From: an uncultured Chloroflexia bacterium
GTDB lineage: Bacteria > Chloroflexota > Anaerolineae > JAAYZQ01
Direction of reading: 5' to 3'
Assembly: GCA_963700285.1 (NCBI GenBank)
Contig: CAVOXA010000010.1
Coordinates: 1,248,001-1,312,000, forward strand
DNA length: 64,000 nt
The notes below the pieces were generated by a model that was not told the DNA's origin, searched no databases, and saw only the letters and a program-made list of their open reading frames with translations. A program made the translations under genes and the position numbers. Shown here piece by piece: positions 12,232 to 43,040 of the stretch. Position 1 is the stretch's first letter; each line of letters starts with the position of its first letter.

Positions 12232-12304
12232 GGTGGATGTAGCTCAAAGGCAGAGCACCGGTCTGTGGAACCGGTGGTTGCGGGTTCAACCCCCGTCATC
12301 CACC
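12232..12304 (+). tRNA. tRNA-His (GTG)
   Basis: Acceptor GTGGATG/CATCCAC with G-1 and C discriminator; anticodon stem CCGGT/ACCGG, loop CTGTGGA; T-arm GGTTCAAC. Confidence 0.97.
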
Positions 12305-12314
12305 CAGTGGACAT

Positions 12315-12351
12315 AAACAGGGAGGGGTTACTAACTGCCTCTCCCTGTTTT
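12315..12351. terminator. bidirectional terminator between tRNA-His and abiEii
   Basis: AAACAGGGAGGGG...CCTCTCCCTGTTTT hairpin. Confidence 0.75.
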
Positions 12352-12372
12352 GATTTGTCTGCGCTCTGGTCT

Positions 12373-13177
12373 CTAGTCGAGGACGTGCTTCAGGTTCTCC
12401 GCTGTCAAGAGTCCCGCGTCCCCACTCGAGTCCAGAAATGGCCGTACATCGTCCACGACTTGCTCCCAGGCGACAGCTTGAAGCCGACGGCTGCACGGTC
12501 TGTCGCCAGTTGTCCTCTGTCAACGGTTCGGCTTCCCAGCCTGTCTGTCGCAAGGCATTGTTCAGCAAGGTCAGGTTGGGTGCCGGCCAACCGGGATCGC
12601 TCAGATACCACAACAGGTCGTAGAGGTCGCGCCCCTTGAGATAAGGACGCTGCAAGACGGCGTGCAGTTTGCCTGCCAGAAGCGATGCCCGGTCGTGGTG
12701 ATGAAGCTGCAAGGGTACATGACGGCGGATGACGGTCGTTGCCAGTCCTGCCCCGGCCGGCGGATTGGTGTCCACTTCGATCTTGACGGCCAGCACCTCG
12801 TCCCGGTGAGGCGAAAGCTCCAGCTCGTAGAGCAAGCCGCGAAAGCGGACAAAGGCACTGTGCACTGTTTTCTGATCGCTGACCTTCAGGTCGAGGGTGT
12901 AGCCTTCGGCGGTGAACGTGGATTGGATGGCGCGTAGATAGGCACGAAAGTCATACTGAGATTGGCCTTGCTCCAGGGCAAAGTCCAGGTCTTCCGAGTA
13001 GCGAGCGCTGGCATAGAGGAAACGGAGGGCCGTTCCGCCATGAAAGGCCAGAGGGATCATGGCGCCAGCACGTTGGAGTGTGCCCAGGATTCTGGCCTGC
13101 AAGTATTCCCGAGCCAGGTTTCGTCCGTGGATGGGAGTAGGAGCAGTACGGACAAGGGTAATCAGGTATTCTTTCAT
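12373..13177 (-). CDS. abiEii: AbiEii/AbiGii-family nucleotidyltransferase toxin (type IV TA); one frameshift near the C-terminus
   Basis: REYLQARIL, FHGGTALRFLY..RYSEDLDF, KIEVD, GKLHAVLQR..KGRDLYDL; alternate frame finishes ...VDDVRPFLD...ENLKHVLD*. Confidence 0.9.
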
Positions 13178-13811
13178 AGGGTTTCGTACGCCCTTTCGGC
13201 TGCGCCAGTTTGATGACAAAGGCTGCTGCCCGTCTCAGTTTCTGGCTTGACGCCAGTTCAGCTTGATGCTGCAACTCTTCCAGGTCAAGTCGCTCCATAC
13301 CTTGCAGGCGTAACTCTTGCAGGTATTCGGCGGAATCCCCACCTGGCTGCAGGTGGACCAGATCCAACAATGCCTTTTCCGGTGTGGCCACAAATGCCTG
13401 CTGGTTGCCCCCCAGGTCGACCAACCGGTACCCAACGAACCACTCGGTCTTGATGTGTCGAAACGTGTAGACACCCAACGGCGTCTGCCATTGACCGGGC
13501 CGGCCGGTGGTGATGCTGGTCGTCACAGGCACGACATCTGGAATCAGTCCATAGTACCCGAGTGCCGATTGCAGGCTGACGTAGGAACTACGCATCATGC
13601 GGTTGGCTACGACAAAGGGATGGGGCTTGACCTTCTGGAAGGGTGGGGCCAGGGCGTATAGGCCCCGGCGCAGTTGGTAGAGACGCCCGGCTTTGGTCCA
13701 GCGGGACAACTGGCGGCGCACATCTTTCGAGTCTACTGCACCCGCCAGCAGCAGCCCGGTCTCGAAAACCGGCTCATCGCCGACGATGTCAAGCAAATGT
13801 GTGAATTCCAT
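13174..13811 (-). CDS. abiEi: AbiEi-family antitoxin/transcriptional regulator
   Basis: QLSRWTKAGRLYQLRRGLY, SYVSLQSALGYYGLIP, ATPEKALLD; likely ATGA overlap with toxin after a 1-nt shift. Confidence 0.88.
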
Positions 13812-13817
13812 GCGCAT

Positions 13818-13846
13818 ATTATACCATGAATGGCATATTACTGCAA
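13818..13846 (-). promoter_or_regulatory. abiE promoter with overlapping imperfect inverted repeat (putative autorepression operator), leaderless
   Basis: Minus strand TTGCAG-N17-TATAAT, ATG 6 nt downstream; ATATGCCA..TGGTATA dyad in the spacer. Confidence 0.6.
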
Positions 13847-13882
13847 CAGAACGTCGATGCTGTCTGTAGCGTGGTGCCATTG

Positions 13883-13919
13883 TTTTGGTAACCGGGGGTC
13901 TAACCCCCGTCATCCACCC
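13883..13919 (+). repeat. attR-like copy 1 of tRNA-His 3' end with shared upstream TTGGTAAC motif
   Basis: TTTTGGTAACCGGGGGTCTAACCCCCGTCATCCACCC versus tRNA GGGTTCAACCCCCGTCATCCACCC. Confidence 0.88.
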
Positions 13920-13947
13920 TGTGCGCAACAAAGCGGAGTCACCCCTT

Positions 13948-13980
13948 GAGGGCCTCGTCAGCGGCGAGGCTCTTTTCTTT
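13948..13980 (+). terminator. terminator hairpin following att copy 1
   Basis: GAGGGCCTCG-loop-CGAGGCTC TTTTCTTT. Confidence 0.7.
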
Positions 13981-14049
13981 CTTGCCTCTCTCCACAATCT
14001 TACTATTGATTGTACTGACTGGACAGTGAGACCAACTGACTGCCGATGT

Positions 14050-14086
14050 GACCCCGGTCCTCAGAGATCAGGGCTGGGGTCTTTTT
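14050..14086 (+). terminator. terminator-like hairpin
   Basis: GACCCCGGTCCT-loop-AGGGCTGGGGTC TTTTT. Confidence 0.55.
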
Positions 14087-14291
14087 GCGTTTCTTGGCTT
14101 CTTTATGGAATGGGTATATAATAAACGAGACAAGATACGAGCACCGATTTGCATCCAACTGCTGCGGGCCGCCCCCAACCGATTGTAGACAGTTCGGCCC
14201 GTTGTGGGTCGGGCGCGTGCGGTGCGAGTGGTGGAGCGGTGGGGCGAAAACGGTAACAGGAGACAGGGATCCTGGCAAAGACAACCTGCCC

Positions 14292-14474
14292 ATGTGGCGC
14301 GACCCCGGATTCTGGACCGCACGAGGCTGCGTCATGACCGGCGGCGCGTTTCTGTCGGTGTTGGGCATTGCGGCGGCAGTGTACTAGGCCATAGAGGGGT
14401 ACACCGAAGGGCGGCTGCTGGTGATCGCGATCCTGCTGGCGACGGTCCTGCTTGTGGTGGCCACGAAAGGGTGA
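14292..14474 (+). pseudogene. small two-TM membrane protein interrupted by in-frame TAG
   Basis: MWRDPGFW...FLSVLGIAAAVY*AIEGYTEGRLLVIAILLATVLLVVATKG*; hydrophobic helices either side of the stop at 14385-14387. Confidence 0.4.
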
Positions 14475-14559
14475 CTATTTTGCGCAATCAACCCGGTGTC
14501 CGAAGGCGCGGAGGGTCGGAATGGGCGACGTAGCACACTGACGACTCAAGGGGGCTACT

Positions 14560-15471
14560 ATGAGGAACCTGCTAACAGTGGCAATGATTGCTCTGGCGAG
14601 TCTCGTGGTTTTGATCATGGCATGTATCTGTATGTACTTGGCCTTTGGCAGGGATCTTGTTGAATGGCCGTCGACCAGTTCAACCGGCGTCCCTGCAACC
14701 TCCACACCCAATCCCACCAACACCCCAGTAGCTGTCCCATCCACCGCCAGCGCCGGCGACATCTGGATCCGCCCTGCTGACGGCGCGGTGATGGTTTACG
14801 TTCCAGCCGGTGAGTTTCTGATGGGCAGCCCTGATGATGACCCTGACGCCGCTGACGACGAAAAGCCTCAGCACACCGTCTACCTGGATGCCTTCTGGAT
14901 CGACAGGACCGAAGTGACCAACGCCCAATACCGCCAGTGTGTGGAGTGGGGAGCTTGCTGGGAGCCGCGATACTGGGACGATGACAGTCTGCACGCCCCG
15001 GATGAGCCAGTGCTGTGGGTGAGCTGGAATGATGCGGAATCCTACGCGCAGTGGGTTGGGGGCCGGTTGCCCACGGAGGCCGAATGGGAGAAGGCAGCAC
15101 GGGGCACAGATGGGCGTAGCTATCCGTGGGGGAACAGCCCGCCAGCTTGCTCCAAGGCCAACTATGCGGGTTGTGCGGGTAGCCCGCTCCCTGTAGGCTC
15201 CCATCCTGAGGGAGCCAGCCCCTACGGAGCGCTGGAGATGGCGGGCAATGCACGGGAGTGGGTGGCCGATTGGTATGATGAGGACTATTACGGCCGTTCT
15301 GTTTTCCGCAATCCCAATGGACCGGATTCCGGCACCTTCCGGGTGTTGCGTGGCGGTTCGTACCTCCATGATCAGTCTGTCGGCCGCTGCGCCTATCGCG
15401 ATGGGGGCTATCCTATCAGTAGGAACGGGATCGCCGGGTTTCGGGTGGTGGTGGCCCCTGGCGACCACTGA
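14560..15471 (+). CDS. membrane-anchored FGE-sulfatase (SUMF1/CLec fold) domain protein
   Basis: N-terminal TM, P/T linker, VPAGEFLMGS, DEKPQHTVYLDAFWIDRTEVTN, RLPTEAEWEKAARG, MAGNAREWV, GFRVV. Confidence 0.93.
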   Translation: MRNLLTVAMIALASLVVLIMACICMYLAFGRDLVEWPSTSSTGVPATSTPNPTNTPVAVPSTASAGDIWIRPADGAVMVYVPAGEFLMGSPDDDPDAADDEKPQHTVYLDAFWIDRTEVTNAQYRQCVEWGACWEPRYWDDDSLHAPDEPVLWVSWNDAESYAQWVGGRLPTEAEWEKAARGTDGRSYPWGNSPPACSKANYAGCAGSPLPVGSHPEGASPYGALEMAGNAREWVADWYDEDYYGRSVFRNPNGPDSGTFRVLRGGSYLHDQSVGRCAYRDGGYPISRNGIAGFRVVVAPGDH

Positions 15472-15541
15472 TCCCTTCGGCTTTGCTCAGGGCAGGCTCT
15501 GTCCCTCTGGTCCCTTCGGCCTTGCTCAGGGCAGGCTCTGG
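15472..15541 (+). repeat. two tandem REP-like units CCCTTCGGCYTTGCTCAGGGCAGGCTCT
   Basis: Direct duplication immediately after the FGE stop; inverted copy at 17879-17905. Confidence 0.75.
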
Positions 15542-15761
15542 ATTCCTGATCCGCTGGGCACTCGGTGACGGGTAGCGGACTCACTGGGCTGCTGAGTGCT
15601 GCCAGAGGACGAGCAAGCGATATGAGGATTTACAACGAGCCAGTATGTGGTACTCGGAGGCATTGTAGCGAGGATTGGGAATCACGCAAGCAAGGGAGAT
15701 CAGTCGCCTTGGGAGCAAGCCTGGCGGGTGATCGGTCTCTTGTTTACCGGGGAGGAAACAA

Positions 15762-17320
15762 ATGAGCTACTCAGAGACCCATTTCGTCAAGCAGTACGAG
15801 CCGGGTAGCCAGGCTCGTGTGGAACTGGCAAACGCCCGGATCGTGGACGTGGTTAACGGCCGCTACTATGATACAGGAACGAGCATTATTCTGCAAGGTG
15901 GCAAAAGATCGCGTCCATGCCGGGCCTTGCGGGCGCGCCCCGAGTCCCGGTCGACTTTACGATTGACCTGAAGGGCAAGACCGTACTTCCCAGTCTGTAC
16001 AACACCCACGTTCACCTGCCGGGGACTGGGGCTACGATGGTTCCTGGCCTGCGTGACATGTTGCGTGCGAAAAGACACAGTGAGGAGCAGCTCGTCAAGG
16101 ATCTGGCTGACTGCCTGACCCATGGTGTCACCAACGTCAGGCACGCCGGGTTTGTCGCGGATCTGCGCGCGAATTGGACGCTCAAGGAACGGATCAAGAC
16201 GGGCGAACTGCCGGGCCCGCGCATCTTGCAGGCCGTTGTTGTGGGCCCCACGGGTTCCTATATGCAGGAGAAGCTACCCGCGTGGATGAAGCTTATGGGG
16301 GGTATGCCCCAGGTCGATCCCTCACAAGACTATGCCGGCGCTGTGGCCTTCCCCATAGACGCGCCGGAAGACCAAGTCAGGGATGCCGTTGACATCGCCA
16401 TTGATGAGCGCGGCGCGGAGGTGATCAAGATCGGGGACGATCCCTTCAGCATGATAGGTGGCAAGCCTGTACCGGTGATGAGCATCGAACAGCTCGGCAT
16501 CCTGGCCGATCAGGCGCGCTACCGGGGCGTGCAGTCCACGATGCACCACTCATCCGTCGAGTCCTTTCGGCGCGGGGTAAAGGCCGGCGTGTCATCACTG
16601 GAGCACGTTCCCTGGGATGCCCCGCTCACCCGACAGGATGTAGAGGCTTTCAAGGCATCGGGGTGTCTCAATGATCCGACAATCTCTGCATTCTACGCAA
16701 TCTTTTCCTGGAAGTTGGCGGGAGCTCGTTCGAACGACCATCCGGAGCTCGACAGGTTGACGGCCTTCAGGGACAGGACCTATACCTTTGCGACCATTGC
16801 CGATGAATACTATGTCCCGGAATTGAGGGCCAGCGTGATGAATGGCTACAGGCGGTGCGCCAGCGGCAAACCCAAATCGATGGGCCTCATCGATATGTCC
16901 GGGATGTTTGCTTGGGACACCAAAACGGCCACCGCATTCGAGAACTTTTGTCTGCTCTACAAACATGGCGTTCCTATGGCGACAGGAAACGATACCAAGC
17001 CTCCATGTACACCGGCTATGGTGGGGCTTGAGCTGCGTATGTTTGATCACGTCTTGGAGGGGGATGCGGACAAGGTGCAGTTCAGCGGTGCCGACGCAGT
17101 CAAGATCGCCACCATCAACAGCGCCCGCTCCCTCGGACTGGAGGAGGAGTTCGGCTCGATCGAAAGCGGCAAAACAGCCGACCTGGTGATCCTGGACGGC
17201 GACCCGCTGGATGATTTCCGCGTGATCGGCAGCCGGGTGGCCGCTCTGTTCATGGATGGCAAGCTGGTCATAAACAACTGCGGCCTCGAGGTGGAATCCA
17301 ACGACAAAGCGCAAGGCTGA
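15762..17320 (+). CDS. amidohydrolase-family protein (frameshift near 15905)
   Basis: NARIVDVVNG; IDLKGKTVLPSLYNTHVH; SLEH; ATINSARSLG..GSIESGKTADLVILDGDP. Confidence 0.88.
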
Positions 17321-17474
17321 TATGAGTATCGGCAGCAAATTCAACTGCTCCACGCGCATTTTGGTTGCTTACTTGGCGAAGGTATCACCCCGCAACCGCG
17401 CAGCGGGTGAAGCCAGCCGTTGGACGGCAAAGAAATGTAGTGGTTCGTTCAAAGTCGGAAGGGAGCTTCTCAAA

Positions 17475-17807
17475 ATGGGAGAGCCTACGAAAACGAATAC
17501 TGAACAACCCAAACGCCGCACCGGCCTGTTGATCTGGCTGATCGTCTCGCAATTGCTGGCCGTAGGCTCGCTCTGGTTCTGGGTCGTTTTTGCAGGACTA
17601 TCCGTGATGGCTTTCGACGAAGGCGGAAGCCCTACAGCTTGGGCAATTGTGATCGGCGCTTGGGCTTATCCGCTATTCCCGTTGACCATGGCCATCAGCG
17701 CATGGCTCGCCTTTGCCTTGCGCAAGAACCGGCTGGCAGCCGTGCTCACAGGGCTGACCTTCGCGCCGGCTTGGCTTTTTATTTTGGCTATGATGATCGG
17801 GCCGTGA
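17475..17807 (+). CDS. small integral membrane protein (about 3 TM)
   Basis: Hydrophobic helices, GGGAG RBS before ATG at 17475. Confidence 0.7.
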   Translation: MGEPTKTNTEQPKRRTGLLIWLIVSQLLAVGSLWFWVVFAGLSVMAFDEGGSPTAWAIVIGAWAYPLFPLTMAISAWLAFALRKNRLAAVLTGLTFAPAWLFILAMMIGP

Positions 17808-17878
17808 TTTGGATTCAACACCCCGACATGAGACGGGCGTGACACTCGCCAGATCCTACTTCTCTGAGGCATAGTCAT

Positions 17879-17905
17879 CCCTGAGCAAGGCCGAAGGGAC
17901 CAGAG
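17879..17905 (-). repeat. 27-bp inverted copy of 15505-15531 (REP-like)
   Basis: CTCTGGTCCCTTCGGCCTTGCTCAGGG identical on opposite strands. Confidence 0.8.
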
Positions 17906-17914
17906 TGTCAGTGA

Positions 17915-18664
17915 TCAGAGGTCACCGGGATCCACCACCACCCGAAACCCAGTGTAGGTGACATGGAGGTTCGGATAGCTCCCGTCGCGGAAGGCGCAGC
18001 GCACGTCGCGTAAGGCGCAGCGCACGTCCCCCAGATTGAGGCTGAGCGCCCCGTCTCGCACCACACGATAATCCCCAGACTCTGGTCCCTGGGGGTTCCG
18101 GAATGGAGACCGGGAATAGTAATCATCGTCATACCAGTCGGCCACCCACTCCCTGATATTTGCTGCCATGTCCAACGCGCCGTGTGGGCTGGCTCCGCCA
18201 GTCCCCCGCGCCGCCTTCTCCCACTCCGCTTCCGTCGGCAGCCGGCCGCCAACCCAGGCGGCATAGGCCCTGGCCTCCTCCCAGCTCACGCCCACCACCG
18301 GCTTGTCAGGAGCGTTGTAGACCTCATCACCCCAGTAGCGCGGCTCGTTACAGGCCCCCGCCTCCATGCACTTGCGATACTGGTCGTTGGTCACCTCCGT
18401 TCTATCTATCCAGAAAGCATCCAGATAGACGGCGTGCTGGGGTTTTTCGTCCTGGCCGGCATCTGGATCATCATCGGCGCTGCCCATCCGAAACTCACCA
18501 GCCGGCACATAGAACATCACTGCGCCGTCCTTGGAGCGGGTCAAGGGTTCATCAGCGACAGGTTCGTCCTTGGGGCGGGTCAAGGGTTCATCAGCGACAG
18601 GTTCGCCATTGCAGCCAACCAAGTGAAAGCACAACACGAAAACGAGACCCAAATATCGCTTCAC
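17915..18664 (-). CDS. FGE-sulfatase domain lipoprotein with internal duplications and a deletion
   Basis: LVGC lipobox; DEKPQHAVYLDAFWIDRTEVTN; RLPTEAEWEKAARG; GFRVV; lacks the YPWG segment present in the paralog. Confidence 0.85.
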   Translation of the reverse strand: MKRYLGLVFVLCFHLVGCNGEPVADEPLTRPKDEPVADEPLTRSKDGAVMFYVPAGEFRMGSADDDPDAGQDEKPQHAVYLDAFWIDRTEVTNDQYRKCMEAGACNEPRYWGDEVYNAPDKPVVGVSWEEARAYAAWVGGRLPTEAEWEKAARGTGGASPHGALDMAANIREWVADWYDDDYYSRSPFRNPQGPESGDYRVVRDGALSLNLGDVRCALRDVRCAFRDGSYPNLHVTYTGFRVVVDPGDL

Positions 18665-19131
18665 CTGTCCCCTCCTTCGTGAGTGGCGATTCCGCTCACC
18701 GCCGCCCGGGTTGTGTTATGGCATTTGTGCTGCCATAAGGATTCTAACATTGATTGGCGGAAGTGGCAAAGGGGGATGAACGCGCACAGTTCTCGAGAGG
18801 AGGATGGCATCCCTTCGACGAGATCCCCTCGGCTTGGCTCGGGACAGACAGGACAGGAGCGAACACTTTGGCAATGCTCAGTGCAGGCCTGGTCGAGCGG
18901 TTTTCTGCCAGTAGGTGCCATCGTGTCGCTCCAGAACGTATTGCCTTCTTGTGAACTCTGTAGTACAATGTGCCTGCCTGGCAACCACAACAAGATCCCG
19001 CAGAAGAGATGTAATGAGGGTTTTCACTCCAAGAATCCACCATTGTCCTGCAAAGCCCCCAAAAGCCATTGGCTTTAAGGGTTTTTCTAGCCGCGAGTAA
19101 GCGGAATCGGGACGAACCAGGAGGGAATACC

Positions 19132-19704
19132 ATGCTAACCAACCGTATCATTGGCGCGTTCACGTTCCGCAAGGGCGTGTACGCCGAGGTTGAGAAAGAC
19201 ACGTCATTCACCACAACCGCCTGGGTTCTGGTGGTCGTGGTCGCATTCCTCAACCGACTCGGCTCATTCTCACCTTCTATCGACTGGCTGATCGGCGCCA
19301 TCGTGAGCACGATCTTTTCCATCCTCGGCTTCGCCGTGGGTGTCCTGGTCATCAACTGGCTGGGGCGCACCGTCTTTAACGCCGACGTCAGTTTCGATGA
19401 ACTGATCCGGACGCTGGGTCTGGCCTACGTCTGGCAGGTGATCGGCGTCCTGGGTATCCTGGCCGCCTTCTCCGAAGCTCTGTCCTGCGTGTTGGCTCCG
19501 GTCCAGATCATTGCCATGATCTTGATGATCATCGCCTGGTTCATCGCAGCCAGGGAGGCACTGGACCTGGAGTGGGTGCAGACCATCGTCACGGTCATCC
19601 TGGGCTGGCTGGCCCAGTTCGTGATCACCACATTCATCACCGGCCTGGTGCTGGGCCTATTTGAGCTGGGCGCTGCTGCGATGGGAGGACTGTTTGGCTC
19701 TTAG
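19132..19704 (+). CDS. Yip1-domain membrane protein
   Basis: MLTNRIIGAFTFRKGVYAEVE..., about 5 TM helices, ELIRTLGLAY; GGAGGG RBS. Confidence 0.75.
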   Translation: MLTNRIIGAFTFRKGVYAEVEKDTSFTTTAWVLVVVVAFLNRLGSFSPSIDWLIGAIVSTIFSILGFAVGVLVINWLGRTVFNADVSFDELIRTLGLAYVWQVIGVLGILAAFSEALSCVLAPVQIIAMILMIIAWFIAAREALDLEWVQTIVTVILGWLAQFVITTFITGLVLGLFELGAAAMGGLFGS

Positions 19705-20000
19705 AAGGTGAAGGAATAGCAACCACGCGACGGTACGTCCCAATCGAGGATGGACGCATGGCCTATATCAGAAGCGATGGGGTCCGCTGACGAAGCACTG
19801 AGCTATGCTCTGGTGGCCACTGGCTACTCGGCCAAGTATGCTCCCGAGGACTATCGGCTTGCAGTCTCGGACATTTGCGACCCGGGGCCTGAGCACTATG
19901 ATTATTACACCTATGCTCTTGAGGGTACACACGTGGCCGAGGTCGCAAATGGTTATCACATCAACCTGTCACAAGAAAGCAGAAGGAGACTGATTCCAGA

Positions 20001-20630
20001 ATGGCAAAAGCGACGCAAACCCACCGTTGCCTGGCTATCCTACTGCTCCTCCTTTGCCTGTTCGCTCTCTTGGGATGTATGCCGGTGGTTGTGGTCCGGG
20101 AAGTCGTCTACCGCCCTTCCCCGAGCGATCCCTACGAGCTCTGGCGGGCCCTAATCACCGACTCCGGATTGCTCCTCCTTTGCGGTTCCGTCGATAATGG
20201 CCGCGAGTCAATGGAAGGGATCGTCCGGTACTATAACTTGGCACTTCGCCTTGATGAGACGCTAGATCCCCAGGCCTCCGATGAGATCCAGGTCGTCCAG
20301 ATCAACGATCACCCGTCGCTGGAAATGATCAAGGGGTATCCCTCGGACCTCTGCCAGTTCGACAAGAAACGAGCGACAAAGAGGCCGGAAGAGACAGGTT
20401 GGACCGAGATCTTTCTGGACAACTGGGACGATGGGTACGTCAAGGTTACCCAGTCTGACCTTGACGCGGGAAACTTCCCAATTCCTCCCGCAGAACCCCG
20501 CATAGTAATCTATCAAGTCTATGACAGCGATCCTCCCGCCTATCTCCTGATGGGGCGGCTCCGAGAGGAAGGGCCGGAGCAGGCGGTGCTCCTTATCCTC
20601 GGATCCGAGCACATTGAGGCGATGTGGTGA
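20001..20630 (+). CDS. hypothetical lipoprotein
   Basis: Signal peptide with LLGC lipobox, acidic soluble domain. Confidence 0.6.
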   Translation: MAKATQTHRCLAILLLLLCLFALLGCMPVVVVREVVYRPSPSDPYELWRALITDSGLLLLCGSVDNGRESMEGIVRYYNLALRLDETLDPQASDEIQVVQINDHPSLEMIKGYPSDLCQFDKKRATKRPEETGWTEIFLDNWDDGYVKVTQSDLDAGNFPIPPAEPRIVIYQVYDSDPPAYLLMGRLREEGPEQAVLLILGSEHIEAMW

Positions 20631-20902
20631 GGGCTCGTGTGTGCCTTCAGTCGCAATGCCCACATCCTGTCAGTATTGCACGCCGCAGTGCGGTCCGGGT
20701 CATCACTCAACAGAAACACCCAGCCACGGCATGTCCCGCTCTGCTGTTCACAGCCCCGGTACGAGCTAGAGTCAGCCTCTCATGTCATCGCCATCTTATC
20801 CGTTGAGGCTGCCTCTGGAGGCATTCAGACTTCATCTTCGAACTGATGACAGAGCCAAACCGGCTCATTTCTCGTTGCTCCCAATACCTCAGGAATACAC
20901 GT

Positions 20903-21726: not shown

Positions 21727-21742
21727 CCAAAGAGGAGAAATC

Positions 21743-32993: not shown

Positions 32994-33013
32994 TTGCCTT
33001 GAGGTTCTGCAAT

Positions 33014-36000
33014 ATGAAGCTGAGTGTACACGGCAGTTCCTCGGCTGACGCCTTTTTCGTGTGGGCCGAATCGTCAGAGGCGACACCCCGGAAGCCCGGG
33101 CGCAAGCCCCGGATCCCGCCACATCCCCACGCTGCATCTCCCGCCAGATTGCGCGCCGTGTTACAGGACCTGGCGCCCTCGGTCGAGTGGGAAGCCGTTC
33201 CCAGTGAGGAACGGGTAATCCTGCTGCCCTCGGCAGCGGATGCCCCCTGTCTGCCCCCCTGGCTGGTCCCCGATGCGGTAGATCCAGGAAGCCGAATTGC
33301 ATCTGTCGCCGTGGAAGGTGACCGGCCTGGCTCTGGATCGTGCTGTCGGCCTTGCACTTCCTGGTCGCGCTGCCGCTGGGCGAGGACCAACAGGAGGCCG
33401 TACGCAGCCGGCAGTGGGGCGCAGACCTGCATTACTGGAGCCTGGTGGCCAAGTTTGGGCTCGAGTTGCTGGCCCACCACCGCTATCTGCCGGGCATGGC
33501 GGAGCATGAAGGCCAATACCGGGCCGCGCTGGCTGCCGGTGCTGGAAGATATCCAGGACCAAACACGCCTGCGCAGGCTGGCAGAAGCCATGCCGCCTGT
33601 TTGCCGGGCCGTGTTCGCCGGCAGAAAAGCGCCGGAACCAGAACAGGCCCCCGAACCGCGCGACCTGTTGGACCGTTTTCTCAAGCAGCTTGTCGACCAG
33701 GCCGTGCGCGATTGGGGCCGGCCCCGTCTGGATGGCCGGCGCAAGCCGCCGGAAGGGGTCGCTGGCGCGTGGTGGTCGGCGCTGTGGGATGATGTCCAAG
33801 CCCAGGGGAGCCCGATTGAGGTACCGTTGTCCCAGCGGCGTGATCTGGCGCGCCTGTTCGACGCCTGGCAGGCGTGGATAGGGCAGTTGCGCGGGCTGAA
33901 GGACGTGACCTTCCGCCTTTGCGTCCGGCTGGAGCCACCCGAAGTGGACCCAGAAAGCGGCCAAGTGCTCTCGCCCGACTGGCTCCTGCGCTACATGCTC
34001 CAGGCCAACGATGATCCCAGCCTGCTGGTGCCTGCCGAAAAGGTATGGGACGCGCGGGGCGGTACGCTGCGCATCCTCAATCGCAAGTTCGAGGGGGCAC
34101 AAGAGCGACTGCTGGCCGGGCTGGGGCTGGCTGGACGGCTCTTCCCGCCTATCATGAAGAGCCTGCGCACGGCGCGGCCCGATGCCTGTCCTCTGACCGT
34201 AGACGAAGCCTACGCCTTCCTGCGTGAGGTGGGACCGCTTCTGGAAGGCAGCGGTTTTGGCGTGCTGGTGCCCCCCTGGTGGGACAAACCTGGCGCGCGG
34301 CTGGGCGTGCGAGCCCGATTGCAGACCCCGGACACGGTCGCCGGCCAGGGATTCCTGGGCATGGACACCCTGGTGCAGTTCGATTGGGAATTGGCCCTGG
34401 GCGACGAGGCGCTGACCTACGAGGAATTCCAGCGGTTGGCCGCGCTTAAAATGCCCCTGGTCCAGGTACGCGGCCAGTGGGTGCTGCTCCAGCCTGACCA
34501 GATCGAGGCGGCCATCGCCTTCTGGGAGAAAAAGCGCAAGCAAGCCAAGATGTCTCTGCACGATGCGCTGAGCCTGGCCCTGGGTGCTGACGAGGAGGTC
34601 GCAGGGCTTCCACTGCAGGGCGTCGAGACTTCGGGCTGGTTGGACAGTCTGCTGGATCAGTTGGGGGCTGGCGACCAGATGCAAGAGCTGGTGCCGCCGC
34701 AAGCGTTCGAGGGCCAACTGCGGCCCTACCAGGTGCGTGGCTACTCGTGGCTCCATTTTCTGCGCAAGTGGGGGCTGGGCGCCTGCCTGGCCGACGATAT
34801 GGGCCTGGGCAAGACGATCCAGGCCATCGCCCTGTTGCTGTACGAGCGCCAGGTCGCTGAAAATGGCGTGGAACCGGCGCTGGTGCATCTGCCCCACCTC
34901 GGTCGTCGGCAATTGGAAGCGCGAGATCCAGCGCTTTGCCCCAAAGCTGCGGGTGATGGTCCACCATGGCGGCGACCGGGCCAAGGGCGAAACGTTTGTC
35001 GCTGCTGCCCAGGAATACGACGTCATCATCAGTTCCTACGGTCTGGCCCGCCGCGACGTCGACGACCTGGCCCAGGTGCCGTGGAGCGACGTCATCCTCG
35101 ACGAAGCCCAGAACATCAAGAACCCCCAGGCCAAGCAGACACAGGCCATCCGCAAGCTACCGGCGGCCAATCGTGTGGCCATGACCGGGACCCCGGTGGA
35201 GAACCGTCTGTCGGAACTGTGGTCCATCATGCAGTTTCTCAATCCTGGCCTGCTGGGTTCGCAGGCCGGATTTCGCCAGAGCTTTGCACTGCCCATCGAA
35301 CGCTACCAGGACAGATCGGCCACCGAACGCCTCAAGGGCTTGGTCGGGCCGTTCATCCTGCGTCGCCTCAAGACCGATTCGACCATCATCCAGGATCTGC
35401 CAGACAAGTTGGAGATGAAGGTCTACTGCAACCTGTCTGCCGAACAGGCTACCCTGTACGAATCGGTGGTCCAAGAATCGCTGGTACGGATCACCTCGGC
35501 AGAGGAAGGAATAGAGCGGCGCGGCGTGGTGCTGGGCTCACTCACCCGACTGAAGCAGGTCTGCAACCACCCGGCCCAATTCTTGGGCGACGGTTCGGCG
35601 CTGCCGGGGCGGTCCGGCAAGTTCGACCGGATGGGCGAGATGCTGGAGGAGGCCCTGTCTATCGGCGATCGAGCGCTCGTGTTTACCCAGTTTGCCGAGA
35701 TGGGCCACATGCTACAGGCCTATCTGCAATCCCTGTTTGGCATCGAAGTGTTGTTCCTTTACGGCGGCACGCCCCAGAAGCAGCGGGATCGCATGGTGGC
35801 TCGCTTCCAAGGAGAACGGGCCGGCCCGCCTGTCTTTATTCTCTCGCTGAAAGCGGGTGGCACTGGGCTCAACCTGACAGCGGCCAATCACGTGTTCCAT
35901 TTTGATCGCTGGTGGAATCCGGCCGTAGAGGATCAGGCCACCGATCGGGCTTTCCGCATCGGGCAAACACAGGACGTGCAGGTGCACAAGTTCCTCTGTG

Positions 36001-36143
36001 CCGGCACGCTGGAGGAGCGGATCGACGAGATGATCGAGAGCAAGAAGGCGCTGGCCGAGAGCGTCGTCGGCGCGAGCGAGGGCTGGTTGACCGAGTTGAG
36101 CACCGACGAACTGCGCGACATGATGTCGCTGAGAAGGGATTAG
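33014..36143 (+). CDS. SNF2-family DEAD/DEAH helicase-like ATPase (frameshifted)
   Basis: [69 protein letters not shown]. Confidence 0.92.
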
Positions 36144-36147
36144 GCCC

Positions 36148-37056
36148 ATGGCCAAACGGCGTAGCAGCTACTATGACAGCTACTGGCCGCGGTACGAGCC
36201 GACGCGCCCCATCGATGTCGAGGACGGCATCAAAGCCAAGAGCAAGCGTGGCAAGTTCGTCAAGCACTGGTGGGCCGACCGCTGGATCGCGGCGCTCCGG
36301 CCGCTGATGGATTCCGGGCGGCTGAGTCGCGGCCGGAGCTACGCCCGGCGGGGGCAGGTCATGGACATCCACGTTGCGCCGGGCCTGGTTACATCCCGGG
36401 TGCAGGGTTCTCGGCGCACGCCCTACAAGGTCAACATCCAGCTCCAGCCGCTGAGCGAAAAACAGTGGGATGAGGTGCTCGAGGCCCTGGCCGAACAGGC
36501 CATCTTTGCCGCTCAACTACTCAATGGCGAGATGCCGGCCGACATTGAGCAAGTGTTTGAAACGGTGCAGGTACCGCTTTTTCCTGCTTCGCGGGGTGAT
36601 CTGCGAACTGACTGCTCTTGTCCCGATTGGGCCAACCCCTGCAAGCACGTCGCCGCGGTGTACTATCTCCTGGGCGAGCGCTTTGACGAGGATCCGTTTC
36701 TGCTGTTCGAGTTGCGGGGACGGAGCCTGGAGGAGATTGCCGGCGCCCTTCGCCAGCGCCGGGCTGTGGAGATCAAGGCCGTCAAAGCCGCGCCCTGCAC
36801 GCCGACCTTGGTCAAAGTGGTTGGTGTCCCTGCCCTCGAGGATTCAATGGATCGCTATTGGGCCCTGAGCGCCGATGCGGCCGACATCACAGTGAACATT
36901 GCCCATCCGCGCGTCCCCTTGGCCCTGCTCAAGCGGGCAGGGATACCCGATTTCGACGGTGTGAACCCCCGGAACCTGCAACAGCAAATGGAAAGGGTGT
37001 ATGAGGGCGTGACCCTGGCTGCGATCCAATTGGCCTTTGCCGATCCTGGGGAGTGA
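36148..37056 (+). CDS. SWIM zinc-finger protein
   Basis: RLSRGRSYAR, CSCPDWANPCKH, DPFLLFELRG. Confidence 0.92.
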   Translation: MAKRRSSYYDSYWPRYEPTRPIDVEDGIKAKSKRGKFVKHWWADRWIAALRPLMDSGRLSRGRSYARRGQVMDIHVAPGLVTSRVQGSRRTPYKVNIQLQPLSEKQWDEVLEALAEQAIFAAQLLNGEMPADIEQVFETVQVPLFPASRGDLRTDCSCPDWANPCKHVAAVYYLLGERFDEDPFLLFELRGRSLEEIAGALRQRRAVEIKAVKAAPCTPTLVKVVGVPALEDSMDRYWALSADAADITVNIAHPRVPLALLKRAGIPDFDGVNPRNLQQQMERVYEGVTLAAIQLAFADPGE

Positions 37057-37534
37057 GGGCGAGGGAAAGGCGGCGGACGCAAAGCGCATCGTGTCTATCT
37101 GCTAACCGGGGGACCCGCTCGCTACCACCTCTGCGGACTGCGGCTGATCGGTCAGACCTATGGGCGATACGAGATGCCATACCCGCGCGACGTGGCCGAC
37201 CGGCGAGGCTTTGACTGTCCAGTGGCTGGGCGGAGCACGCAGGCGAGGCCGCTGGATGAACCGGTCGGCGAGTTGTTAGGCCGGCTGCTGCTACCCGGCA
37301 AAGAGGCTAGCCACTACCGTTCCCCTCGGAGAACCCAACGGGAATGGCCGGGAGGCGCGTGATCACCATCCCGGCCCACCACCCCGTCAACGGATCCGGC
37401 TGAGCCGCTGACCCGTTGCCAGCAAAAGAAAGGTCACCAAACAACCGGCTCGCCGGCGGGCAAGGTCTCCCGCAATGGCGGGCCGGTTTTCTATTTCCGG
37501 AGTTGAGCATCCATCCGGTACCATCAGAACAGGT

Positions 37535-39156
37535 CTATTGGTCGTTTCCATAAACCATGGGCAGATAAGCTTGCACCCTCCAGAATTTGATCAGCCGGGG
37601 AGCAAGCGTGAGCGTCGAGTCCGGTCCCCGTTGCGTCCCCTGGCGGATGTACTCGCGCTGTATGATCTTCAGGTAGTGGCAATCCGGGCTTCCAGGACGC
37701 GAGCACAGCGGGAGCGCGGTCGGGGAGATCGAAAAGCAATGACCTCCGGTCAGGTCCTGCACGGTCGAACAATCTCGCGCCAGGTAGTAGACGTAGAACT
37801 TGTCGGCATTGTTCACGGTTCCGGCATAGTCAAGCGCGGTGCCCCGTAGCTGGTCGCTGCTGATGTTCTCGACGCCCTTCAGCAGGAGGCTGTCGTTCAC
37901 CGACAGACCCACGTAGGTCGCGTTGCCTGTCTCGGTGCCAAGCGTGCCTACCACCGCATAGATCTCCCCGCCATCGAGGGGGAGGTTGGGTGTGATTTGA
38001 TACGTCGTGTCCTGGGTGTCGCCCAGGCAGTTCATCCCGATCTCGGTGCATGTGGGCCCGACCAGGTTGATGGGCTGGGGCTTGTAGGTCGAAGAAACTG
38101 GCCGCCCGATCGGAGCAGTCGTCTTTGGCACAGGGCTGTCCCCACCTGCTGTTGACCTCTGCCACGAGCTGGAACAGATCGGCCTTCAATCCGCTCTCGT
38201 CGGCTGCCGATCTGGCCTCCAGCACCGGTGGGCCGTAGGGTTCAGGAAGCCGATCGGGCCGGGTATCCCGCACGCGGAGGATGACGAGGGGCAGGCCCTG
38301 CCGCCAGGTGTCTGAGGCGGTGCCGGGCGCCCCGCCATCCTGGGGTTCGGCGTAGCGAATGACGTTCAGAAGCTCATCAGCCTCCTCCTCGAGGCCCAGC
38401 CTGATCGTATTGGGGATCGGTTCGGTAAAGATGTTTGCGTCCCTCACCGAAACGGCGTCAAAGGCTTCCCTTATCGCATGATCCATCAACCGGTCCGGGG
38501 TGACGATGATGGCCCGTGTCTTGTCAAAGGCGGCGCCCGACTGCCTTTCGATGACGACGTTGTTGTTGCTATTGCTCAGGCTGGCCAGGAGCTGAATGCG
38601 CTTCGGATTTTCGGGAACGGTGGCGAAGAGGAAATGGAGAAAGTCGGGATAGTTCTTTGCCAGAAACTTGTACGTGTCGCTGTTCGTATCGTAGGTGCCT
38701 TCGCGAGTGAACAGGTAGGTCTGTTCGCCAAAATAGGCGGCCTGAGGGGGCAGACGGCCAAAGATGACGATTGCTTCGCGCGGATCGAGCCGGAACGAGG
38801 TATTGTACCCCTCCAACACCTGGCCCAAGGCCAGCTTGGTGGCAGGATCCACAAATTCCTCCGGCCAGGGTGGTACGGCAAAGAGAACATAGGGAGCAGC
38901 AGGGTTGTTGCCGAAGCAGCTCTTCATCGTCGCGTAGGAATCGGCGCAGTCATCTTCGGTGTACAACCTGAAGTAGCCCTGCGAGACCTCATAGCCCTGC
39001 CGGGAGAGCTCGGCGATGAGGCGTTTGGCCGTTCTCTCAATGGGAGCGGGCACCTCGTTCCCTGGCGCGCCAGGCGCACCAGAGGCGTGACCCGTGACCA
39101 GGAGCAAGAGCGGCGAGACACACCAGCCAGACCAAAGTTCTGTTCCGCTTAGCCAT
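37535..39156 (-). CDS. secreted hypothetical protein with C-terminal YLPMV motif (frameshifts near 39115 and 38085)
   Basis: MAKRNRTLVWLVCL signal after GAGGAGG; coherent protein over two long ORFs; ends RVQAYLPMVYGNDQ. Confidence 0.65.
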
Positions 39157-39944
39157 GTTCGTTCCTCCTCTTCCTTGTGTGAATGTCTGTGCCAGGCTGG
39201 GCCCATCTCGGCAAGATGGATCCAGCCAGCCCTGCTGCTGCACCGCAGGCCATCACCAGCAGAGCACCGAACAAGACTCCCTTCTGAGCAAGTTCCAGCA
39301 CCCATGATGGTTCTGCCACGGACCCATTATACCACAAATAGCCAGCTAAACATCCCAATCTTGCGCTCTCACCGTTGCGCAAGTACCAGCCGATCAAGAG
39401 CCGTACACTATGAGCCGATCTGGCAAACGGCTGTCGGCTGGCGCGGGCCGGCTGGGGTCGTAGGGCTCGCGACTTGAGGGATCAACGTGGCGTGCGTCGG
39501 TCGCGTGCGCTCACCCCCAAGCAGCTTTTGTGACGCTATTGCGGCAGGTAGCGGGATTGCGGGAAAAGGAGGGCTGCTTCTTCCTTGTCAAGGGCAAGGT
39601 TTGCCAGTATAATGACAAGAGTTCCAATGCATGAGACCTTGTACTATCCTGCACCACTCTGACCACGGCAGACAAGAAGGGATCAGGTGGTGCGAGGACC
39701 AAACCTACACGAGCAACTGGCTAGAGCCACGTCAAGGGTCTGTCCATGTGGCGCCTTGTATTCTGCTGCATAGTTCTGGGCTTGCTCGCGATAGCCATAC
39801 CCGTAGAACACCAGGGCGGTGCTGATGAGACCCTGGGATCGATTCGGGAAGGGGGTGGTGGATGAGACTCGCTGTACAAGGTACAACTGTCTGTCAAACC
39901 TCGAGCACATTCCTCCGAGGTGCGCTCCAAGGTCGGTTTTGCCG

Positions 39945-40366
39945 CCCCAGGCAACGCGTTCGCCATCACGATGGGGGTCGAAGGTCAAAAGGCTGGCTAC
40001 GAACCAGGCGACGTGTTGGCCGCCAGCGACTTGGGCAGTGGAGCCGCCGTGCGCACGTCAGCAACCTACTCGCCGGCAGTGGTTGGGGTCTATTCGGCAG
40101 CGCCCGCCTTCGTGGGCGGCCGGCCGGTGACGGGAGACGATCCCTCGGCTGGTGTGCCCGTCGCCATCCTGGGCGTCGTGGACTGCAAGGTCTCGGCCGA
40201 GAACGGGCCGATCCGCCCCGGGGACCTGCTGGTCACGTCCGCAACGCCTGGACACGCCATGCGCGCCGACCGCGAGCGCACATTCACGGGTACGATCCTC
40301 GGCAAGGCCCTGGAATCCCTGGACTCGGGCACCGGACTGATCCAGGTGCTCCTGACGTTGCAGTAG
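39945..40366 (+). pseudogene. C-terminal fragment with peptidase G2/IMC-like autoproteolytic domain
   Basis: EPGDVL, VVGVYS, CKVSAENGPIRPGDLLVTS, GTILGKALE; no credible 5' part. Confidence 0.6.
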
Positions 40367-40377
40367 GAGGGGGATCG

Positions 40378-40638
40378 ATGAGAAAATGGTTCATCCCATT
40401 GCTGATCTTGCTCGTTTTCTTGCTCTTGAGCGCGGGCGCTGGCGCGCTGACAGCGCCCCGCTACCAGGTTGAAACAGGGACCATCTCGGGCGGCGGCTAT
40501 CAGCTCACGACTTTCGGGCCACAGACGGGCAACGTCGCCGCCGGGGGCGGCTATCGCCTGCTGGGTCCGGCAGCACCGGCGCTCCGCGGTAGTGGCTGCT
40601 GCTGCACCTACCTGCCCTGCATCGTCCGCAACAGATGA
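40378..40638 (+). CDS. small secreted protein with C-terminal YLPCIVR motif
   Basis: MRKWFIPLLIL signal peptide after GGAGGG; GGGY repeats; CCCTYLPCIVR. Confidence 0.7.
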   Translation: MRKWFIPLLILLVFLLLSAGAGALTAPRYQVETGTISGGGYQLTTFGPQTGNVAAGGGYRLLGPAAPALRGSGCCCTYLPCIVRNR

Positions 40639-40973
40639 GATCGGCCCTCCCGCCAGCCTGGTGACGGGATGGCTTCGTCGGAGCAAAGTTACCTGGCTGG
40701 TGGCTTCTCTCGTAATCAACACGCTATCCAAAGGGGCGGGGAGCCAGAGCGCGGGCTTGCGCTGGCCCTGTTTGCGTGGTACTATTACCGCATAGGTTTG
40801 CCAGTATGCACAGATATGCAGCGCGAATGAAATAACAAAGTCAGGCAAAGTCGGTGAGCAGGCCCGTTCATTAGCAGGTATCAGGGGATATTGATCAAAG
40901 GGGTAATATGGCTAGCGAGCACGGAATAACTCAAAAGAAGGACCGTTTTGACATTGAGGGTTGCAAGACGACC

Positions 40974-42074
40974 ATGAAAGCGGTTGTCACAAACGGCAAT
41001 GGCGGATACGAACAACTGGAGTATCGGGATGTCCCGGTTCCAGAACCTGCCGCCGGGGAGCTTCTTCTGCAAGTCCTCGCGGCTGGCGTCAACAATACCG
41101 AGATCAATACCCGCCTTGGTTGGTACTCATCCGCGGTCACAGCCGGTACAGAAGCTCTGACCAGCTGCCGAGAAAGAAAAGGCGAAAGCAAAGGCAGACG
41201 GCGGCTGGAACGAGGCGACACCATTTCCCTTCATCCAGGGCACAGACTGTTGCGGGCGCGTCGTCGCCGTTGGCCCTGGTGGAGACGAAAGCACCCTGGG
41301 CTTGCGCGTATTGGTGCGGCCCTGCATTCGCCCCTTGGGATTTGACTCCATGGAGAATATCTGGATGGCCTCCGATTTCGATGGTGCGTTCGCTCAATTT
41401 GTGAAAATCGATGCCAGGGAGGTTTTTCCCGTAGACTGCGATTGGAGCGATGCTGAACTTGGCACCATTCCGTGCGCCTACGGTACGGCTGAGAATATGC
41501 TCCACCGGGCAAAGTGTCCAAGGGCGAGCATGTGTTGGTTGCCGGTGCATCGGGTGGGGTCGGGTCGGCCGTGGTGCAACTGGCCAAGCGCCGAGGGGCC
41601 ATGGTAACGGCCATTGCGGGAGAACAGAAAATGGCCCAGGTGCGGTCAATTGGCGCCGATCGCGTCATCGCTCGTGGTGACGATATTGTGGCCGCTCTGG
41701 GCGAGAACGCGGTCGATGTGGTGATTGACAATGTCGCCGGGCCTGCTTTTGGCGGGATGTTGAAGGTGCTGAAGCGAGGGGGACGCTATGCCTCTTCGGG
41801 GGCCATCGCTGGACCGCTCGTGACCCTGGATATGCGCGATTTCTATCTCAAGGATCTGACCTTGATCGGTTGCACCGCCTGGGATGAGCCGGTTTTCCCC
41901 AACCTCATTTCCTATATCGAGAATGGCGAGATACGGCCACTCCTCGCCAAATCATTTCCGCTTGAACAGATCGTGGAGGCTCAGAAGGAGTTCACCAAGA
42001 AGAAGCATGTCGGCAAATTCGTTCTGATTCCGCCGCCGTTGAACGAGTCACAATTGAGCATGATCTCCCGTTGA
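40974..42074 (+). CDS. zinc-binding alcohol dehydrogenase/quinone oxidoreductase family protein (frameshifted)
   Basis: MKAVVTNGNGG, AAGVNNTEINTRLGWY, GASGGVGSA, GKFVL. Confidence 0.87.
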
Positions 42075-42208
42075 GCCAGATGTTTCATGAATCCTTCATC
42101 TCTTCTCGACTGTCACAACGGCGATTTCGTCCGCCTTCAGCCGTCTGAAGTCAATCCGGTATACCGATCCGGAACTGACGCCTGAGAACTGGTGCGAGGT
42201 CCAGCCCT

Positions 42209-42958
42209 GTGCGACGATCAAGGCTCGCCTCGAAGGAGATCATTCTAACGCAACCGTCCTCGACCTTTTTGGTCTACTTGCTTGGAGTTTTGACGATTGG
42301 CGTCGGGCTTGGCTTTCTGTGGCTCCAGGGTGACCAAGGTTCTCGTCTGTGGTGGGGCATCTCTCTGTTGCTGTGGGGGATTGGTGCGCTTCTGGCCGGA
42401 ACCAGCTACCAGGCATTCGGTTACCAGATTAAATGTGCGGGACGGGAGACATGCGCCTGGACCAGTTGGTGGGAGGTGATCTACCTGATGTTCCAGCAGG
42501 TGAGCATGGACGCGCTGCTGGTTGCTGTCGCCCTTTCCTGCACCGAGGGAACATTGCAGATGGTACTGCTGGGTTATGCGCTGCTCAGTGCGGTGGTGTA
42601 CGTCATCCTCACCTTCATCGGGGCGATTGTTCCTGTCAAAACCCTGATCACCTTCGAGTTGATGGTCTGGGTCTCGACTCCGGTCTTTCTGATCATCCTG
42701 ATTATCAACGGTTGGCGGTACTACATGTTCAGCACCCCCATGGATCTGGCACTATTGGGTGCTTGGCTATGGCTATTTTGCACCATGGCGGCCTATTGGC
42801 TCTACGACCATCTGGATATTACACCAAAGCTGTGGGCGAAAGGCAAAGGGATCTGGTTCTCGCAAAATGACGTGCTACACATCGGCCTCATTCTCTGGAT
42901 GATCTACCTTGCAGCGGTTGTGGCCGGACTTGTCCAAGACTATCCTGTGCCCATGTAG
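42209..42958 (+). CDS. polytopic membrane protein of unknown function (N-terminus probably extends upstream via frameshift)
   Basis: About 7 TM helices, SQNDVLHIG motif. Confidence 0.7.
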   Translation: MRRSRLASKEIILTQPSSTFLVYLLGVLTIGVGLGFLWLQGDQGSRLWWGISLLLWGIGALLAGTSYQAFGYQIKCAGRETCAWTSWWEVIYLMFQQVSMDALLVAVALSCTEGTLQMVLLGYALLSAVVYVILTFIGAIVPVKTLITFELMVWVSTPVFLIILIINGWRYYMFSTPMDLALLGAWLWLFCTMAAYWLYDHLDITPKLWAKGKGIWFSQNDVLHIGLILWMIYLAAVVAGLVQDYPVPM

Positions 42959-43000
42959 CAGACCTCGCACCTTCCGCCTGGTGGAGCGCAGGCACCGGCT

Positions 43001-43040
43001 TTTTGGGCAACTAGGGGTTCAACCCCTGTCATCCGCGCAG
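43001..43040 (+). repeat. degenerate attR-like copy 3 of tRNA-His 3' end
   Basis: TTTTGGGCAACTAGGGGTTCAACCCCTGTCATCCGCGCAG; same upstream motif as copies 1 and 2. Confidence 0.7.

Follow-up and report, generated by a model that had tools for sequence, protein, structure and literature searches.

What builds a row of unrelated gene blocks behind one tRNA gene when none of the blocks carries an intact recombinase gene? This question is raised by a 64,000-nucleotide stretch of contig CAVOXA010000010.1 from an uncultured Chloroflexia bacterium (hereafter the window), in which the 3' end of tRNA-His is repeated three times downstream of the gene, dividing the region into three segments. We found that the repeats are part of a conserved site that recurs in relatives and metagenomes, that the arrays bounded by this site vary in content and order, that no complete segment holds an intact recombinase gene, and that fragments of a large serine recombinase (LSR) lie within the arrays. 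We consider it fairly probable that the arrays consist of non-autonomous derivatives of LSR elements, stacked at tRNA-His by an LSR supplied in trans.

A conserved site and the units between its copies

The tRNA-His(GTG) gene lies on the forward strand at 12233..12305, is the only tRNA detected in the window by ARAGORN, and presumably offers its 3' half as the integration target. Copies of its 3' end follow at 13894-13919 (near-identical), 30996-31022 (identical over 27 of 27 bp) and 43015-43040 (degenerate), and the segments measure 1,614, 17,100 and 12,019 bp. These coordinates and spacings bear out the original prediction, made from the sequence of this stretch alone, of three such repeats closing segments of about 1.6, 17 and 12 kb. 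Searching the assembly (22 contigs, 7.05 Mb) with the last 25 bp of the tRNA, at up to five mismatches, returned four matches, namely the tRNA and the three copies.

All three sites lie on the forward strand. Site 1 (13883..13919) joins a 24-bp element arm to a 13-bp tRNA end. Site 2 (30983..31019) was recovered by the assembly-wide tRNA-end search and by its matrix score. Site 3 (43002..43038) is decayed, has no hairpin behind it and has an orthologous decayed site in the congeneric genome G001 (G001:C9:264896). Alignment of the sites maps their symmetry centre onto the tRNA between 12292 and 12293. A site matrix trained on 102 sites of other genomes, with those of the window left out, gave scores of 45.9, 43.2 and 21.0 for sites 1, 2 and 3, against 7.3 for the best position elsewhere in the genome and 22.7 for the best in a reversed-genome control. 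Since site 3 scores at chance level, its identification rests on its position and its G001 orthologue. The left arm alone scored 18.4, 11.9 and 6.4 in the three sites, values reached by 0, 2e-5 and 2e-4 of 200,000 random positions, compared to −14.2 for tRNA-His. The same non-tRNA motif thus stands upstream of all three copies, as predicted, which supports their interpretation as recombination junctions with a conserved element-derived arm. The similar terminator hairpins noted after copies 1 and 2 are also present (z −4.7, −2.3 and −5.6 behind tRNA-His, copy 1 and copy 2; −0.4 behind copy 3), but they form part of the left end of the following segment, not of the right end of the preceding one.

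We found no further copy of the site in the assembly, while 9 of the 23 family genomes, spread over 6 of 16 genera, carry it (7 by a strict pattern, with G015 and G005 added by matrix scans); draft assemblies often break at such repeats. An exact-pattern scan of a genome collection gave 13 loci, 11 of them titled Anaerolineae or Chloroflexia, and a metagenome scan gave 68 loci, many with two to four sites. From the former, we excluded L023 and L031 as chance matches and nine loci that repeated ones already in the set. From the latter, we excluded three overlaps of L083, three loci without a matrix match, two below the score cut-off and identical duplicates. A class-wide pattern search (401 genomes, two mismatches) returned, among the matches listed, exact ones only in this family, and the rest were near the reversed-pattern background. 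Two pattern matches in a viral collection both fell within coding genes and were dismissed as chance.

Removing duplicates, tRNAs and weak matches left 105 distinct non-tRNA sites, which are conserved from −24 to +13 around the centre of CC/CC (two decayed inverted copies in L009 were omitted from the logo). This conservation is partly imposed by the search pattern, but positions outside the pattern are also conserved (T at −21, 91%; G at −19, 93%; G at −9, 81%; C at −3, 95%). The two halves are complementary at distances 3-5 and 7-13 from the centre (0.67-0.95). Contigs from four sediment-type runs match over a stretch of 35-37 bp only, with different flanks on both sides. The right 13 bases track the host tRNA, as the variant tRNA end of G015 recurs in its two downstream sites. 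A hairpin follows 75 of 107 left ends and 4 of 103 control stretches, which fits the expectation that every unit must be able to sit directly behind the tRNA.

Several individual sites were of note. One class of right ends is preceded by a gene for a 64-69-amino-acid HTH_17 (excisionase-like) protein (L025:3845-4045, L041, L045, L052, L074, L079, L092, L095, L005, L006 and L011), a candidate directionality factor or regulator, and the arm of these right ends mirrors the left end of an element in G019 described below. L025 is a 4.5-kb contig titled Gammaproteobacteria with a typical right end of this class and a site nearly identical to metagenome copies; it is probably mis-binned. G001 also has an intact His-type site within a prophage-like region, which carries a tyrosine integrase of its own beside tRNA-Lys (L005:13840 and L104). 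The two inverted sites of L009 (4307 and 7688) lie 35-38 kb upstream of tRNA-His in G020, and flank a peptidase-S74 gene like one in the array of that genome.

We next looked at the units that these sites delimit. Across 72 loci there were 48 complete site-to-site segments of 230-17,100 bp (median 1,898 bp), most shorter than 3.5 kb, and an intact recombinase was present in none of the 48. Toxin-antitoxin (TA) genes, identified by a Pfam match or by DNA likeness to a segment with one, were present in 28 of the 48 and included HicAB, ParE/RelB, PIN, BrnT, AbiE, HepT and Gp49 types. The smallest unit observed (L049:2902-3132) spans 230 bp from site to site and contains no called gene.

Segments recur as units with changing neighbours. 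A 0.77-kb ParE-type cassette was found in six copies, flanked by five different neighbours on the upstream side and five on the downstream side, and a HicAB cassette that follows a peptidase-S74 cassette in G020 precedes one in G014. Segment 1 of the window is 92.8% identical to an internal cassette of the metagenome array L039 and equal to it in length. Relatives vary in both the content and the order of their arrays. At the tRNA-His locus of G001, segments 1 and 2 are missing, as is the proximal part of segment 3, whereas the distal part is kept with its decayed site. The G001 counterpart of segment 2 lies 160 kb away, between two sites within a tRNA-Val island. The suggestion that the most distal copy is the oldest fits the sharing of this site with G001 in the absence of segments 1 and 2, but it holds only roughly, as G001 has a better-preserved site beyond it and segment 2 has diverged between the two genomes (87-91%) as much as core DNA. 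The G001 homologue of 45043-50317 is closed by a further site, and none is detectable in this part of the window (43039-50320), so that a fourth segment may have lost its boundary. The tRNA-Val(CAC) island (G000:C20:7305-17364; L004/L108) has a duplicated 66-84-amino-acid gene flanking variable blocks, which hold Fur and catalase in the window genome and the segment 2 counterpart in G001, where the island also contains a 70-bp copy of the tRNA-Val 3' end. In one contig of low depth, a segment-2-type left end follows immediately on the tRNA end. Joints between right flanks and left ends of the segment-2 type were present in 4, 6 and 13 records of three runs, and such joints would arise from circles and from tandem neighbours alike.

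Chromosomal integrons are likewise rows of small recombinase-less cassettes, many with TA pairs, that vary in order and grow by entry at one end, and their attC sites fold as single-stranded hairpins. The layout and the small, TA-rich cassettes of the arrays resemble them, with 48 complete recombinase-less segments and recurring types that have different neighbours, and to this extent the predicted integron-like accretion array is upheld. A true integron-type system, with folded single-stranded sites recombined by an IntI-like enzyme, is highly improbable, and such a reaction is largely refuted. The most symmetric site, L041, does fold well as single-stranded DNA (z −3.5), but window sites 1, 2 and 3 fold no better than shuffles (z −1.6, 0.4 and −1.1) and show no attC-type hairpin. 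Neither IntI nor another tyrosine recombinase was found near any array. The cassettes reach 17 kb, carry genes on both strands and start with their own terminators, and their entry site is a tRNA.

Evidence for a large serine recombinase

Which enzyme, then, acts on this site? The original prediction looked to a tyrosine recombinase. A Pfam scan of the 51 open reading frames in the window detected no recombinase, and no tyrosine integrase in cis was found in the window or in the array contigs of G014, G018, G019 and G020, nor by tblastn or profile searches. A tyrosine-recombinase profile run against 76 site-bearing loci (638 kb) gave nothing at E≤1. Over the same loci, an LSR profile matched the window at 37057 and the cassette starts of L101 and L081. 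The evidence thus points to an LSR and away from a tyrosine recombinase.

The segments had been described as showing no recombinase, which holds for intact genes, but segment 3 contains two LSR fragments on the forward strand. These are a zinc-ribbon region (37057..37299; 60% identity over 82 amino acids to P0008, profile E 5.7e-25) and a C-terminal tail (39494..39592; profile E 6.8e-5). All four LSR fragments tested have their best match in one subclade. It comprises about a dozen proteins that contain resolvase, recombinase and zinc-ribbon domains, and its best NCBIfam match is CcrB, a distant one (E 1e-40, far below the cut-off). In the whole 7-Mb assembly, the subclade profile gave three matches at E≤0.01, two of them in segment 3. 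This genome, which is 89% complete, showed no resolvase or recombinase domain match and no intact serine recombinase.

Similar fragments mark the ends of cassettes elsewhere. An LSR C-terminal stub (16-95 bits) opens 5 of 107 left ends, right behind the terminator and at the same junction. In two controls, the opposite strand of the 107 left ends and 97 stretches further downstream, none reached 3 bits. The cargo behind this shared junction is unrelated between cassettes. The L101 stub and the tail of a full-length LSR, P0001, share 94% identity, and the 549-bp cassette consists of a left end, the LSR tail and a right end, with nothing else. In L070, an LSR tail lies immediately before the right-hand site.

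An element directly behind tRNA-His in G019 encodes ParA, HU, a primase-polymerase and an LSR that is 62% identical to P0001. All four genes are on the strand of the tRNA, with the LSR at the far end. The left end of this element recurs in a 1.3-kb TA cassette and is similar to the left ends of segment 3 (31020..31085, forward strand, with a terminator-like hairpin; score 54, z 10.3, fourth best of 113) and, weakly, segment 2 (score 41, z 5.5). This likeness explains the similar terminators seen in the window. Just behind the LSR gene are four CRISPR-like repeats with 75-77-bp spacing (L012:18077-18328), with no cas gene in the locus. The closest LSR match in the viral collection is truncated by its contig end, and the 8 kb upstream of it contain no site. 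In 6 of 30 class-level loci, a related LSR neighbours tRNA-Asp, and a search of six loci with tRNA-Asp LSRs found no attR partner in direct orientation. LSRs next to tRNA-Asp were seen in several Anaerolineae families (L125, L131, L138, L141, L150, L151, L182, L185, L189 and L192), which suggests a wider group of tRNA-targeting LSRs.

The layout of the site can be compared with that of LSR attachment sites. In the account of Zn-ribbon-domain binding in PMC3783163, an attP of about 48 bp carries its 9-bp outer motif at positions 16-24. The same positions hold the outermost 9 conserved bp of the left arm here. Conservation ends exactly at −24, where the contigs from the sediment-type runs also stop matching, and the motif is mirrored on the right in only a minority of sites. 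The tRNA of G001 differs from the G001 sites at −3, which disfavours an overlap of 6-8 bp but may be later drift.

Alternatively, a host tyrosine recombinase, XerC/XerD-like or a paralogue beside prfB/rpoC, could act in trans, as it does for dif-exploiting elements. We regard this as quite improbable. It would account for arrays in genomes that lack an LSR, the inner site is compatible with an 11-6-11 layout, and four Xer-like genes are conserved in the family. One paralogue even has a range roughly like that of the site, with 56-93% identical orthologues in 18 of the 22 other family genomes, whereas outside the family just 4 of 38 genomes had matches (40-46%). This paralogue (G000:C10:1211588-1212535) lies 48 kb upstream of the window, stands beside prfB/rpoC throughout the family (L194-L216) and keeps its Tyr; a second, degenerate one lies at C10:222185. 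In the family members aligned, however, the prfB-linked paralogue carries Lys in place of the first catalytic Arg and Gln in place of the first His, and it also occurs in genomes in which no array was found. The site-bearing loci themselves gave no match to the tyrosine-recombinase profile. A TTATGT motif follows 38 of 105 sites, but at a variable distance of 1-5 nt from the core, and is missing from the other 67. The site thus lacks the fixed XerD arm of a dif site, and we rejected an Xer/dif-exploiting element. The listed Dehalococcoides dif sites are unlike the tRNA-His site, although that list includes none from Anaerolineae, and the GC skew of the draft contigs revealed no clear terminus. 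We also rejected the tyrosine integrase 16 kb from a G001 site as the cognate enzyme, as it lies beside tRNA-Lys and has no second site.

A further possibility is that the segments are static remnants, which arrived in larger islands with their own integrase and shrank by deletion to their ends and addictive TA genes, while order changed through co-transfer or homologous recombination and not through movement of single cassettes. Segment 3 and the stub-bearing cassettes clearly arose by deletion, and TA genes, which resist loss, are found in 22 of 29 complete segments under 2.5 kb. Decay and accretion in three steps is, moreover, the origin described for cis-mobilizable elements (CIMEs) in PMC5704250. 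A deletion origin from an integrase-carrying element, which would have told against the original prediction, is in part what we found, as it applies to segment 3 and at least five cassettes elsewhere. Conversely, cassettes with fixed length and ends recur in different neighbourhoods, and the counterpart of segment 2 sits between two sites at another locus in G001. One left-end junction is common to unrelated cargos, which argues that cargo changed after the LSR was lost. We therefore think that static decay is unlikely to be the whole explanation.

Several observations weigh against stacking by an LSR in trans. No intact LSR was found beside a right-hand site, and the site is missing from all 20 other family LSR loci and all 30 class-level LSR loci examined. 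The LSR of the G019 element is frameshifted near residue 381, and no site follows before the contig ends. No contig links the LSR tail of L101 to the right-hand site, with 5250-5571 uncovered. About 95 of 107 left ends bear no trace of an LSR, and the five stubs share one junction and thus count as one event, not five. G001, with five or more sites, has no match to the LSR subclade. Since islands gather unrelated debris, the LSR fragments could be passengers. Excised circles, which the original prediction proposed to look for in reads, did not appear among the 15 listed of 35 joints in four runs. The best match of the tRNA to the arm motif (7 of 9) is shifted by 3 bp, whereas the shift described for LSR attB is 5 bp inward (PMC3783163). 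Finally, classical serine integrases, as described there, do not recombine attP with attL (PMC3783163), so repeated stacking would need left ends that mimic attB. In this respect, tandem stacking has been described for LSR systems of Dehalococcoides (PMC3146451) and staphylococci (PMC13739063). The tRNAs of two array-less relatives are followed by a terminator of the same kind as the commonest left end, which suggests that attL would look like attB.

Taken together, we infer that an LSR of this subclade is the cognate enzyme, that it crosses over at the central CC, and that it acts in trans and can move single cassettes. An intact visiting element would supply the LSR, and a cassette that retains only the two element ends would insert as a circle into the 3' end of tRNA-His. 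Its left end would restore the last 13 bases of the tRNA and bring a terminator, and its right end would be the 24-bp arm that mirrors the tRNA end around the central CC. Each insertion at the tRNA would shift older cassettes downstream and, because the new left end resembles the old one, regenerate the target. TA cassettes would persist best. Since no intact serine recombinase was found in the genome, the array is probably frozen until a helper arrives.

More speculatively, the system may be a serine-integrase counterpart of the integron. The LSR of a transient helper would capture host genes and TA pairs between two short element ends, and would excise and re-insert single cassettes at tRNA-His, with the entry site regenerated at each insertion, so that sediment Anaerolineae share and reorder a common pool. 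We hold this only as a tentative possibility. If an LSR does move single cassettes in trans, the arrays would mark a directly testable path by which integrative elements give rise to integron-like gene pools. They would also provide an LSR able to act again, at a tRNA, on the site that it has itself produced, unlike classical one-way serine integrases. If only decay is at work, the arrays are a well-resolved example of island accretion.

Contents of the three segments

Segment 1 opens with a terminator-like hairpin with a T tract (12306..12352, forward strand), and the same end opens three metagenome segments (L039, L076 and L079). It encodes a type IV TA pair on the reverse strand, comprising an AbiEii nucleotidyltransferase toxin (12296..13177; PF08843, E 1e-25) and an AbiEi antitoxin (12951..13811; PF13338, E 3e-5, just under the cut-off). 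The AbiEii frame has 293 amino acids against 267 in the L039 copy, with one indel near 12492, and the AbiEi frame 286 against 214, with one indel near 13200 that is either real or an assembly error.

Segment 2 (13920..31019, 17.1 kb) begins with a left end that contains a terminator-like hairpin (13920..13980, forward strand) and is also found in G001. By Pfam, its cargo includes two FGE-sulfatase-domain genes, an amidohydrolase, Yip1, GntR, two MttB methyltransferases, APH/aminotransferase, a saccharopine-dehydrogenase-like protein and GcvT/DAO, overall a block for methylamine and amino-acid metabolism. The segment terminates within a deiminase-family gene, of which only the first 11 codons are present (30926-30961); a longer remnant in G001 matches PF04371. 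At 14560-18664, the two FGE-sulfatase-domain genes are inverted (arms 74-86% complementary) and flank the amidohydrolase, with 39-bp tandem duplications at 15465-15542 and 18526-18603. This block is missing from the G001 counterpart.

Segment 3 (31020..43038, 12.0 kb), also annotated by Pfam, carries UbiA, a CxxCxxCC protein, a split SNF2 helicase, a SWIM protein, the LSR fragments, a zinc dehydrogenase and a membrane protein, and is probably a fusion of several former units. The gene upstream of tRNA-His encodes the Lhr helicase. Frameshifts are frequent in the window (Lhr, 7306-12155; SNF2, 32999-36143; an adenylate-cyclase-like gene, 45174-48911; the AbiE pair) and also affect rpoC outside it. 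They are probably indel errors of long-read sequencing, so that pseudogenes can be called only with reserve. Another tRNA island, separate from the tRNA-His array (G000:C1:1837770-1845430), has two tRNA-Pro(CGG) copies 6.4 kb apart that enclose several TA-like small genes and a frameshifted tyrosine integrase.

Comparison with known systems

Tandem islands with and without an integrase at a structural RNA gene are already known, also in this phylum. What is unusual here is the extent of shrinkage, with sub-kilobase, fixed-end TA cassettes in differing order between genomes and a 549-bp derivative (L101) that still shows its descent from a serine-recombinase gene. No published description of a tRNA-His cassette system was found in the literature searched, whose coverage falls short of most subscription papers.

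Several systems share parts of this arrangement. In the tycheposons of Prochlorococcus, as outlined in the preprint, repeated insertion at tRNAs leaves behind partial copies of the tRNA and displaces older material outward (bioRxiv 10.1101/2020.12.28.424599). However, tycheposons are defined there by their own integrase, which is a tyrosine integrase in 910 of 937, and the units described here carry none. CIMEs are described as elements that have lost their integration genes, retain attL and attR, and accumulate at one target (PMC5704250). The segments here likewise keep both ends without integration or transfer genes. In that account, CIMEs are decayed passengers of neighbouring integrative and conjugative elements, and none of the latter was present in the arrays examined here. 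Many of our units are, in addition, sub-kilobase in size, have their ends in common and have exchanged their cargo, and conjugation genes were not seen in them.

Composites of the staphylococcal cassette chromosome (SCC) at rlmH are reported to arise by LSR-driven tandem insertion, with internal att boundaries and the newest element nearest the target, and recombinase-less elements occur (PMC13739063). The arrays would share with them LSR-driven tandem insertion at one site, and CcrB is the best NCBIfam match of the LSR here. According to the same report, SCC has a protein-coding target, CcrAB/CcrC complexes and large elements, and composites make up 5.9% of cases (PMC13739063). The array described here is therefore not a member of this group.

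The closest known system is that of the Dehalococcoides ssrA islands. The published description has them in tandem, delimited by direct repeats of the 3' end of a structural RNA gene, with a conserved element-derived motif directly upstream of each repeat (PMC3146451). Insertion was inferred in or near the T-loop by a CcrB-like LSR (DsiB), and the integration module, six genes on the reverse strand next to attL, is missing from 15 of 31 islands (PMC3146451). The arrays here belong to the same phylum and share the tandem 3'-end repeats and the conserved upstream motif. DsiB, as described, has CcrB as a distant match, and so does the LSR here. In contrast to the islands as described, the target here is tRNA-His and not ssrA, none of the 48 complete segments has an intact integrase, and the six-gene module is absent, with the LSR on the strand of the tRNA at the far end of the one element seen. 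The segments are mostly shorter than 3.5 kb, rich in TA genes and reordered between arrays. These small, reordered TA cassettes are the new aspect compared to the Dehalococcoides islands.

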